DNA of 41,780 nt from Catajapyx aquilonaris (lineage: Eukaryota), in the NCBI GenBank assembly GCA_000934665.2, contig JYFJ02003446.1:1-41780 (forward strand), given 5' to 3'. The notes beneath the pieces were generated by a model. It saw nothing but the letters and a program-made list of their open reading frames with translations, was not told where the DNA came from and ran no database searches. How positions within the stretch are numbered: position 1 is the stretch's first letter; each line of letters begins with the position of its first letter. Both the position numbers and the translations under genes were made by a program. Below are positions 1,352 to 1,636 of the stretch, one piece after another.

Positions 1352-1636
1352 GGTTTGGTTTGGTTTATTTGGAAGAAGCCAAAGCAACTGTGGCTATCTG
1401 GCTGTAAGAAGAAGCAAAGGTGGGACAGATGGAGGGAGAAACGAAGAGGAAAAAGAAGAGAGGAAAGACTGGCATCTCTCTTAGTCTGTCTCCTATCCCA
1501 AAGACCTGTCCGGCTTGGGTGGCCCTACCAGTAGACGAAGCTACCGCCGGCATAGCTCTTGGGGTCATGGGAGAAACGCAAACCCCACCACCACGATAAG
1601 GTGGAGATACCATCGGGGAGATACCATCGGGGGGGT
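1352..1636 (-). mobile_element. Short non-autonomous retroposon derived from an RTE-clade LINE (RTE-like 5' UTR plus (AAACC)n tail)
   Basis: 12-bp TSD AAACCGAGGTTT (1340-1351, 1637-1648); minus-strand CCACCTTATCGTGGTGGTGGGGTTTGCG...GGTAGGGCCACCCAAGCCGGACAGGTC resembles Expander/Rex3/BovB 5' ends; tandem AAACC tail. Confidence 0.75.

Follow-up and report, generated by a model that had tools for sequence, protein, structure and literature searches.

A very abundant non-autonomous non-LTR retroposon with a plausible, unproven divergent HDV-like ribozyme at its head is the explanation we favor for a 285-base element on the minus strand of a Catajapyx aquilonaris contig (positions 1636-1352), and we hold its probability to be only just short of even. 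The stretch analysed, referred to below as the window, is 41,780 nucleotides long. The copy is full length and lacks both a small-RNA head and any coding capacity. On the minus strand, the sequence contained every feature of the fold laid out in a preliminary description of this DNA, each at the position assigned to it there.

The ends of the element are defined by a 12-bp target site duplication (TSD; AAACCTCGGTTT), the two copies of which (1648-1637 and 1351-1340) were identical at 12 of 12 positions in a blastn alignment. TRF detected (GGTTT)x4.0 at 1347-1366 and, close to the 5' end, a perfect repeat (100% match) of period 14 present in 2.1 copies at 1603-1632. Since the first five bases of the downstream TSD copy (AAACC) are the same as the tail unit, the border between tail and TSD is ambiguous by 5 nt. 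The TSD, the (AAACC)n tail, the many dispersed copies and the lack of an RT ORF are those of a non-autonomous, non-LTR retroposon of the TPRT type. Insertion took place by target-primed reverse transcription, in which the (AAACC)n tail found its match in the nicked target (..AAACC) and the 12-bp duplication was left behind. Sequence, blastn and TRF bore out the architecture proposed earlier, with its 285 bases, 12-bp TSD, (AAACC)n tail, pyrimidine tract and 14-bp 5' duplication, and the 12/12 TSD, the TRF tail and contig depth agreed on a TSD-flanked, tailed, multi-copy retroposon. The 14-bp duplication appears to be private to the 1352-1636 copy, as family depth falls to about 2 at 1624-1640. 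The coordinates of all features are collected in Table 1.

Table 1. Parts of the retroposon copy and of the candidate ribozyme fold, with the evidence for each.
Feature	Positions	Strand	Evidence or remark
TSD, upstream copy AAACCTCGGTTT	1637..1648	-	blastn, 12/12 with 1351-1340
Retroposon copy, full length relative to the family	1352..1636	-	summed contig depth, loose ends
Candidate P1 5' strand CCCCCCC, preceded by A1636	1629..1635	-	sequence, scans
Tandem repeat of two identical 14-bp units CCCCGAUGGUAUCU, private to this copy	1605..1632	-	TRF, contig depth
Candidate P2 5' strand UGGUAUCUCC	1603..1612	-	sequence, tighter scan
Candidate P3 ACC, L3 UUAUCGU, P3' GGU	1590..1602	-	sequence
Candidate P1' GGUGGGG, directly 3' of P3'	1583..1589	-	sequence
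UU after P1'	1581..1582	-	possible pair U1582-A1597 (L3); U1581 faces U1598
Candidate P4 rod, long	1486..1580	-	MFE -32.4 kcal/mol, z -0.66
Candidate J4/2 CUAA, putative catalytic C at 1484	1481..1484	-	sequence, scans (C-N-R-A)
Candidate P2' G(A)GAGAUGCCA	1470..1480	-	sequence, contig depth at 1473
3' body, pyrimidine-rich, highest family depth	1371..1469	-	sequence reading, contig depth
Tail AAAT(AAACC)3	1352..1370	-	sequence reading, TRF
TSD, downstream copy	1340..1351	-	blastn, TRF, sequence reading

Between 2,324 and 2,514 contigs per DNA run aligned to the element at a likeness of at least 80%, with differing flanks, and summed contig depth amounted to 31,000-120,000 within 1352-1606 versus 23-35 in the flank at 1250-1334. 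Beyond 1618 the loose ends were heterogeneous, their agreement of 0.4 being that of the flank, and the heterogeneity set in at the C-run that would form P1; the loose-end consensus past this point, at the same flank-level agreement of 0.4, begins GGCC on the plus strand. The family has a defined 5' end, at the C-run. No other copy of the element was found within the window by blastn. Viral contigs gave 0 matches to 20-mers from the element; metagenome contigs gave one, in a bacterial coding region with no resemblance beyond the 20-mer itself, and genome contigs one, in a bacterial MAG alike over a 21-base core alone, which in the element's frame encodes PPYRGGG. A literature text search with sequence strings from the element returned no match.

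The preliminary description had denied the element a recognisable small-RNA (Pol III) head, and this was supported: ARAGORN found 0 genes, and the Rfam search of 1300-1800 at E<=10 returned no small-RNA family, so that no head of the kind derived from tRNA, 7SL or 5S in SINEs was seen. The label "RTE-derived" found no support, and neither did the placement of the element in sense orientation within an intron of gene 3. Pfam was run on 121 of the 122 window ORFs of at least 75 aa (the one containing N being excluded) and yielded nothing above curated cut-offs; neither an RT or endonuclease ORF (0 of 121) nor a conserved exon was found in the window. The only long frame of the element, of 82 aa (ATG at 1613 to TAA at 1367), had no Pfam match, and five of the six common variants within it, among those listed, alter the amino acid (by hand). 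Its interpretation as the remnant of a LINE ORF was rejected, as a near-length search and 1.84 billion representatives gave 0 relatives. No parent LINE was found, either by an RT ORF in the window or by protein relatives of the element's frame, nor were homologues of the window's 735-aa ORF. A tail of short repeats would suit RTE, but other LINE clades as well.

The candidate helices follow the nested double-pseudoknot order of HDV-like ribozymes, P1-P2-P3-L3-P3'-P1'-(P1.1)-P4-J4/2-P2', with a P1 of about 7 bp adjoining P3', a P3 of 3 bp and an L3 of 7 nt. In P1, CCCCCCC pairs with 1589-1583 at six of seven positions, with one C.U mismatch (duplex -10.3 kcal/mol); with the duplication in place, UCUCCCC (1621-1615) offers an alternative 5' strand. 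P2 is formed by UGGUAUCUC (1612-1604) and GAGAUGCCA (1478-1470), which pair over 9 contiguous bp including one U.G, and is extended by C1603-G1480 if A1479 bulges. P1.1 is reduced to the single pair A1597-U1582, which passes the P1.1 test of scan tier B and of the tighter scan; the two C-G pairs of the standard P1.1 are lacking, since L3 has U and A at positions 2-3 and P1' is followed by UU. In the CPEB3 ribozyme, too, P1.1 is a single pair beside a U.U. The G1:Y pair (G.U wobble) at the cleavage site is also lacking, the first pair of P1 being C-G or, in an 8-bp register, A1636-U1582. The A at position 3 of L3, where C is conserved, speaks against a ribozyme, as does the internal C.U mismatch in the P1 of this copy. 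Both P4 helices, UCUCC/GGAGA and CCC.AAGA/UCUU.GGG, are present in the MFE fold of 1582-1486. In the descriptor given in PMC6326823, L3 carries U19, C23 and G24 (reverse wobble U.G), which correspond to U1599, C1595 and G1594. J4/2 lies within CUAAGA (1484-1479), with C at 1484; measured against the C-R-R-A of the same descriptor, CUAA fits at C, A and A and has U for R as its second letter, and it adjoins P2' only with A1479 bulged.

Descriptor scans were made with literature-based patterns, written after the candidate had been seen and without validation on known ribozymes. A relaxed descriptor matched 4 loci in the real window versus 0.675 per shuffled window (200 shuffles), the candidate being accompanied by three unrelated loci, one within a GC-rich ORF; real DNA thus over-produces such matches. 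With a tighter descriptor (P1.1 + G1:Y relaxed), the candidate was the sole locus on both strands (83.5 kb), and 500 shuffled windows contained 16 loci. When the de-duplicated 5' 163 nt were dinucleotide-shuffled 20,000 times, 12 shuffles matched anywhere and 2 matched with a P1 that begins within the first 4 nt, 0 of these also having a P1.1 pair. The strict descriptor of tier C (G1:Y35, CC/GG P1.1, C-R-R-A) gave 0 matches in the window, and the candidate has 6 of the 13 fixed letters of the PMC6326823 descriptor (counted by hand). In these scans the 5' ~160 nt follow the helix order of HDV-like ribozymes more closely than chance predicts; the strict descriptor does not recover them. The interpretation put forward in the preliminary description is, overall, partly supported.

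The class assignment fared worse against Rfam (release 15). The whole window had 0 families at the gathering score, and at E<=10 the HDV-like models still matched neither 1300-1800 (501 nt) nor 1460-1640 (181 nt); these covariance models take no account of pseudoknots, and a P4 of 95 nt would lower their score. Hammerhead, twister and other ribozyme classes likewise had no match at E<=10 in these two intervals; the matches returned for 1300-1800 were all non-significant and below gathering (E 1.4-8.5), and a small-RNA head was not among them. Thermodynamics were neutral to unfavourable for the HDV-like fold. The P4 region (1582-1486) had a stability z of -0.66, with 50 of 200 shuffles folding equally well, and the whole 172 nt a folding z of -0.36. 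The nested HDV-like part (-45.9) plus the P1 duplex (-10.3) compares with -55.4 for the pseudoknot-free MFE, which has a different inner helix, and the probability of P2 in the nested ensemble was 0.04-0.06.

Variation across the family was read as marginal letter counts from contigs rather than raw reads, in which the family's P1 5' strand was not readable. Position 1473 differs from the family majority, which is T for C on the plus strand (58% of depth; 54-65% in X1-X3), hence A for G on the minus strand. The majority letter turns the U.G of P2 into U-A, making the helix fully Watson-Crick, and, with pairing by hand, places an A across from C1578 in GCGUUUCUC/GAGAGAUGC, the helix that competes with it. 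The folded P4 (1486-1582) contains 20 of the variants listed; of the 13 transitions that fall on paired sites, 10 leave the pair intact, among them all 5 variants with a share of at least 10%, via G.U on the minus strand only, and those that break a pair, among the variants listed, have a share of 5.7% or less in every case. By these marginal counts, the changes in P2 and P4 are one-sided and pair-keeping, and family variation is compatible with the candidate helices. Between 1569 and 1623, a variant-poor stretch with three CpGs, no alternative letter reached 5% among the variants listed, versus at least 14 positions reaching 5% in X1-X3 within 1390-1568; conservation of the core is uncertain, as there are four further variants beyond those listed and alignments are clipped near the element end. 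Loose ends at 1564 mark a subfamily that differs in the G-run region. Given the lack of a listed variant of at least 5% in 1569-1623, the weak P1.1 would be a trait of the family, not decay of this copy. The preliminary description had set the imperfections down to this copy; the family consensus mends P2 through 1473 and leaves P1.1 as it is.

The same family might carry no ribozyme, its stable 5' C-run/G-run hairpin and rod-like body serving another purpose, such as stabilising the RNA, acting as an internal promoter or being recognised by the reverse transcriptase of a partner, with the HDV-like reading a chance overlay produced by a flexible search. We take this to be a serious contender, somewhat less probable than an even chance would make it. 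The pseudoknot-free MFE of the de-duplicated head, in which ACCCCCCC pairs with GGUGGGGU around an inner helix AUGGUA/UAUCGU, equals or beats the HDV-like arrangement; Rfam contains no ribozyme match; P1.1 and G1:Y, which shape the active site, are not in place; and the relaxed descriptor, with 4 loci against 0.675 per shuffled window, matches real DNA more often than shuffled. Pair-preserving variation in P4 argues for a structured RNA alone, not for catalysis. A chance overlay would, however, have to account for a tighter descriptor satisfied solely here in 83.5 kb and rarely in shuffles (16 loci in 500 windows; 2 in 20,000 at the 5' end), for an L3 U..CG and a C-N-A-A junction exactly where the fold requires them, and for a majority letter at 1473 that, with pairing by hand, favours P2 over the competing helix.

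It is also conceivable, and in our judgement improbable, that a parent LINE, as in an internally deleted element, passed on an HDV-like ribozyme of its 5' UTR that survives in the 5' part as a relic, inactive in the family, whose 5' end would be set by the parent's history or otherwise. Such a relic would be expected to look much like the candidate, with its topology kept and its active-site pairs weakened (the single A-U P1.1, the A at the conserved L3 C). According to PMC3774820, a like change in L3 went with lost activity in one R2 element, whose ribozyme, with C-to-A and G-to-A at conserved L3 sites, was inactive in vitro; internally deleted derivatives that retain the ribozyme are described for R2 and L1Tc (PMC3414825 and PMC3383444). 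Set against this are the thousands of copies sharing the core letters, with no listed variant of at least 5%, which is easier to understand if the core mattered during the spread of the family, and the parent LINE itself, which was found neither as an RT ORF in the window nor through a protein relative of the frame.

If the head is a ribozyme, as we favor, the first ~160 nt would fold as an HDV-like nested double pseudoknot comprising a C-run/G-run P1, a GA J1/2, a 10-bp P2 with a bulged A, a 3-bp P3, a 7-nt L3, P1', an A-U P1.1, a long P4 and a CUAA J4/2. Transcripts reading through from a host promoter would cut themselves immediately upstream of the C-run, either at the element's first nucleotide or one base further in, with C1484 presumably acting as general acid. 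In this way the family, lacking its own promoter, would acquire a uniform 5' end, and a putative partner LINE would reverse-transcribe the RNA through the tail. Such a ribozyme would be divergent and probably slow, with C-G or A-U in place of G.U at the cleavage site and a single A-U as P1.1. In this copy, the 14-bp duplication would either lengthen J1/2 to 16 nt or shift P1. In its most specific form the proposal is a tentative one, in which we place rather less than even confidence: a divergent HDV-like ribozyme, with P1 starting from C, an A-U P1.1 and a P4 of ~95 nt, may head a promoter-less, SINE-sized retroposon of thousands of copies, and copies lying in sense within host transcription units may cut host pre-mRNAs at thousands of sites.

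One close parallel in architecture is L1TcRz/Pr77 of L1Tc and NARTc in trypanosomatids, a ribozyme that occupies the first nucleotides of the element, as the candidate does. NARTc, the short non-autonomous partner of L1Tc, keeps its 5' HDV-like ribozyme, likewise a candidate feature of the short element described here. According to PMC3185411, L1TcRz is active with a P1.1 of a single pair, the arrangement also seen in the candidate, and PMC4035085 states that P1 G-C orientation and P1.1 are constrained too tightly in the standard descriptor; these are the two respects in which L1TcRz, like the candidate, departs from it. L1TcRz differs in being 77 nt long, with a short P4, and in doubling as a promoter, whereas the candidate P4 measures ~95 nt; the tail of L1Tc is poly(A), that of the present element a pentamer repeat. 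RTE, Baggins and R2 are promoter-less elements that rely on an HDV-like ribozyme at the 5' end to free them from read-through transcripts (PMC6765202), much as proposed here, and the internally deleted, non-autonomous R2 SIDEs retain it (PMC3414825). Unlike the candidate, the ribozymes of RTE, Baggins and R2 have the conserved C in L3 and a P1.1 made of G-C; mismatches in P1 occur in about one in four R2 ribozymes, at the top of the stem (PMC3774820), whereas the C.U of the candidate is at the third pair from the top. The canonical HDV/CPEB3-type descriptor, as given in PMC6326823, shares with the candidate a 7-bp P1 adjoining P3', a 3-bp P3, a 7-nt L3, U19, C23 and G24, a catalytic C followed by N-A-A, and a P2 that closes the fold; by contrast, G1:Y35 is replaced by C-G or A-U, C20, C21, G36 and G37 by U, A, U and U, and R53 by U, and P2 requires one bulged A. 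Short, abundant retroposons with a self-cleaving motif are also found among the schistosome SINE-like elements (hammerhead) and as twister variants in Schistosoma non-LTR elements (PMC6765202 and PMC8501958). The former are described as transcribed by RNA polymerase III and as often standing in tandem repeats (PMC6765202), whereas the present copy is single and dispersed, and the ribozyme class is a different one.

An HDV-like ribozyme at the head of a retroposon is not new in principle. Should the RNA show no cleavage, the element would be a useful case of a non-catalytic retroposon head closely imitating HDV topology. If the reading is true, a very abundant short element would have active-site pairs that fall outside the standard search descriptor, supporting the view, expressed in PMC4035085, that present descriptors miss many natural HDV-like ribozymes, and it would provide a natural test of how weak P1.1 may be. 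Host transcripts would, moreover, contain potential self-cleavage sites by the thousand.

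The features of the 285-base retroposon copy on the minus strand are compiled in the table below. All of the helices and junctions named in the preliminary description, which had proposed an HDV-like ribozyme in the head (the 5′ part) of the element, were found in place; the element length and the 14-bp tandem duplication at the 5′ end were likewise borne out. The duplicated target opens with five bases identical to the tail unit, presumably because the tail annealed at the nicked site during target-primed reverse transcription.

Features of the retroposon copy and of the candidate HDV-like fold in its head (plus-strand coordinates; a prime marks the 3′ strand of a helix)
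Feature	Position	Strand	Basis or remark
Upstream flank end, target-site duplication (TSD) copy AAACCTCGGTTT	1648-1637	-	sequence
A + seven-C run	1636-1629	-	sequence
14-base unit CCCCGAUGGUAUCU, tandem x2	1632-1605	-	TRF period 14, 2.1 copies, 100%; units identical
CC-ACC-UUAUCGU-GGU-GGUGGGG-UU	1604-1581	-	sequence
About 95-nt segment, interrupted-rod fold	1580-1486	-	predicted fold
A-CUAA-GA-GAGAUGCCA	1485-1470	-	sequence
Pyrimidine-rich stretch	between 1470 and 1370	-	sequence
Tail AAAT(AAACC)3	1370-1352	-	sequence
Downstream TSD copy AAACCTCGGTTT	1351-1340	-	12/12 identity with 1648-1637
Candidate P1 CCCCCCC / GGUGGGG	1635-1629 / 1589-1583	-	6/7 pairs, one C.U
Candidate P2 UGGUAUCUCC / G-[A]-GAGAUGCCA	1612-1603 / 1480-1470	-	10 pairs, A1479 bulged
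Candidate P3 ACC/GGU, L3 UUAUCGU; P1′ directly 3′ of P3′		-	sequence
Candidate J4/2, exactly CUAA	1484-1481	-	sequence

No second copy of the element was found within the window. The stretch is present in four DNA runs of one sample and in one small run from a second study of the same organism. Family data were obtained from contigs of three of these DNA runs (X1-X3) and of the small run, aligned to 1250-1750 at a likeness threshold of 80%. The three DNA runs yielded 2,324, 2,514 and 2,407 contigs aligned to the element region, in agreement with the multi-copy nature initially suggested. Summed contig depth, which is not equivalent to copy number, was 23-35 in the left flank and 31,000-120,000 over 1352-1606, falling to about 16,000 over 1607-1623 and then to about 2 over 1624-1640. 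These data show a family on the order of thousands of copies. In each run, 21-23 contigs continued beyond 1618 into unlike sequence with a consensus agreement of 0.4, the level also seen in the flanks of the neighbouring SINE (0.39-0.44 at 1694-1699); therefore, the family ends at the C-run. The present copy is full length, and it alone carries the second 14-base unit. The retroposon is genuine, non-autonomous and highly repeated.

A further 12-13 contigs per run depart from the alignment at 1564 with a shared consensus (agreement about 0.6) that is element-like except in the region of the G-run (P1′). The upstream part of this subfamily would be the natural place to seek compensatory P1 changes. 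A second repeat on the plus strand (1692-1900, aligned to 1750) begins some 45 bases away from the element and is commoner still, with a summed depth of 160,000-600,000 and heterogeneous loose ends before 1694-1699. On visual inspection its head looks tRNA-like and contains a B-box-like motif, GGTTCGAT; neither ARAGORN nor Rfam (to 1800) called it as a tRNA.

The reference descriptor, as described in PMC6326823, has P1 formed by nt 1-7 with 29-35 (G1:Y35 fixed), P1.1 by C20-G37 and C21-G36, fixed U19, C23 and G24 in L3, and C-R-R-A in J4/2. The candidate satisfies six of the 13 fixed letters (U19, C23, G24, the catalytic C and both As of J4/2) and departs at G1, Y35, C20, C21, G36, G37 and R53. 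Its P1.1 has shrunk to a single pair, A1597-U1582, next to a U.U; A1636-U1582 could add a pair to P1. J1/2 is GA without the private duplication and 16 nt with it, in which case P1 could shift to UCUCCCC (1621-1615). Bulging A1479, a new reading that differs from the original map, removes both irregularities of that map, the single C left unpaired between P2 and P3 and the J4/2 of 6 nt.

The frequency of such matches was gauged with two scans, both written by ourselves after the candidate was known and carrying no validation on known ribozymes. The relaxed scan tolerated one mismatch in P1, a J1/2 as long as 20 nt, a P2 of at least 6 bp, a P2-P3 gap of 0-1 nt, L3 as U-N3-C-G-N, C-N-R-A plus 0-2 nt, and P4 up to 150 nt. 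It returned four loci in the window, the candidate and those with P3 at 30686, 10376 and 8432, against a mean of 0.675 over 200 shuffled windows; therefore, matches are several-fold commoner in the real DNA. The three other loci, all on the minus strand, all fail the tighter scan and were treated as false positives calibrating the descriptor; the one at 30686 lies inside a GC-rich 173-aa ORF and depends on G.U pairs. The tighter scan, which required P2 to abut P3, a J4/2 of exactly C-N-R-A, a P2 of at least 7 bp holding no more than one bulge, a J1/2 no longer than 5 nt and, as a minimum, the inner pair of P1.1, found the candidate alone on both window strands and 16 loci in 500 shuffled windows. 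When the de-duplicated 163-nt head was shuffled 20,000 times, 12 shuffles gave any relaxed match, and in two of them P1 began at one of the first four bases; of these two, none had a P1.1 pair and one had a P2 of at least 9 bp. A strict version, with all fixed letters required, matched nothing in the window, the candidate included. The topological match, at the very place expected for a retroposon ribozyme, is unlikely to be pure chance; given the latitude used in defining the descriptor, the nominal chance figures should still be discounted, by one to two orders of magnitude. A 20-mer of the P3-L3-P1′ core recurs in a bacterial MAG contig, with likeness limited to a 21-base core; this match is chance, and the G-rich core is not unique.

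Other identities for the element were considered. ARAGORN found no tRNA gene, and Rfam gave no match in the whole window at gathering score; in 1300-1800 and 1460-1640, neither small-RNA nor ribozyme families appeared even at E<=10. These results agree with the claimed lack of a Pol III head, and the HDV-like models of Rfam do not match the head. An 82-codon frame on the minus strand (1365-1613) runs from an ATG at 1613 inside candidate P2 to a TAA at 1367 just before the tail. It had no relatives in a near-length search or among 1.84 billion representatives, and five of six common family variants change a residue (by hand); the frame is therefore probably fortuitous. The RTE derivation put forward in the preliminary description found no support: the analysis turned up no partner LINE, Pfam cut-offs were reached by none of the 121 ORFs of at least 75 aa in the window, and no reverse transcriptase or endonuclease domain was detected. 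The pentamer-repeat tail fits RTE and also other LINE clades. As to the proposed sense position within an intron of gene 3, no conserved exon was found near the element. Minus-strand open frames at 18502-20709 (735 aa) and 21972-23165 (397 aa, Q/H/P-rich) resemble sizeable exons of a gene on that strand; Pfam gave no domain in either, and for the 735-aa frame no homologue of comparable length was found. At 14554-14946 (minus strand), a long simple repeat of trinucleotide type yields a poly-Ile/poly-Asn open frame.

Family variation was assessed from letter counts alone, taken from aligned contigs. In the pairing test of P4, which covered all 20 listed variant rows of the folded stretch 1486-1582, five fell at unpaired sites; of the remaining 15, ten keep and five break pairs. 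Transitions divide ten to three (binomial p 0.046 against one half; structural null 34:28). Each of the five variants whose share is at least 10% keeps its pairing via G.U, valid on the minus-strand RNA alone, and no pair-breaking variant exceeds a share of 5.7%. Such a pattern is expected if subfamily-founding changes were filtered for structure and later decay was not. P4 variation speaks for a sense RNA that is structured, rather than for catalysis specifically, as would also suit a non-catalytic structured head, which is quite possible. The majority letter at 1473 (54-65% of depth in X1-X3) converts a U.G of P2 to U-A and sets an A opposite C1578 (partner by hand-pairing) in a competing helix, GCGUUUCUC/GAGAGAUGC, seen in the pseudoknot-free MFE fold. 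Neither the 172-nt head (z -0.36) nor the P4 segment (z -0.66) folds better than its shuffles. Folded without pseudoknots, the de-duplicated head has an MFE of -55.4 kcal/mol, its C-run and G-run pairing to enclose a different inner helix. With P2 and P3 forced and the pseudoknot strands kept free, the value is -45.9 kcal/mol, to which the P1 duplex contributes about -10.3 kcal/mol before any pseudoknot penalty, the pseudoknot being something that the programs used cannot score; P2 has a probability of 0.04-0.06 in the nested ensemble. Thus, the HDV-like fold is competitive, not favoured.

The preliminary description had hoped that the weak P1.1 was a fault of this copy alone. Among the variant rows listed (all but four), none between 1569 and 1623 reached 5%, despite three CpGs, with alignments clipped near the element end; 1390-1568 had 14 such positions in X1-X3. 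At face value, L3 and the letters after P1′ are those of the family, and therefore the weakness is not private decay. In R2 ribozymes the catalytic C and four further positions are rigidly conserved, and an R2 ribozyme with C-to-A and G-to-A changes at conserved L3 sites was inactive in vitro (PMC3774820). The candidate, unlike R2 ribozymes, has A at the conserved L3 C, and that inactivity counts against the fold. L1TcRz, like the candidate, has a one-pair P1.1 and is described as active (PMC3185411); trypanosomatid ribozymes deviate in P1 G-C orientation and in P1.1 pair number and identity, and the original descriptor is called too restrictive (both PMC4035085). The candidate's deviations are therefore partly precedented among active ribozymes. 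The combination of a C-first P1, a single A-U P1.1 and a U after the catalytic C was not found described in the papers examined, and a literature text search with three element strings returned no paper. We tentatively regard an HDV-like self-cleaving ribozyme as the most likely single mechanistic reading of the head; an inactive relic seems improbable. Set against the non-catalytic head and the relic together, the ribozyme is close to a coin-flip.

According to a review (PMC6765202), HDV-like ribozymes occur at the head of R2, L1Tc, Baggins and RTE elements, and certain SINEs employ hammerhead or HDV-like ribozymes; non-autonomous derivatives of L1Tc (NARTc) and R2 (SIDEs) are likewise described as keeping theirs (PMC3383444, PMC3414825). 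If the head is indeed a ribozyme, it would be a divergent one, exemplifying a principle already known rather than a new one.
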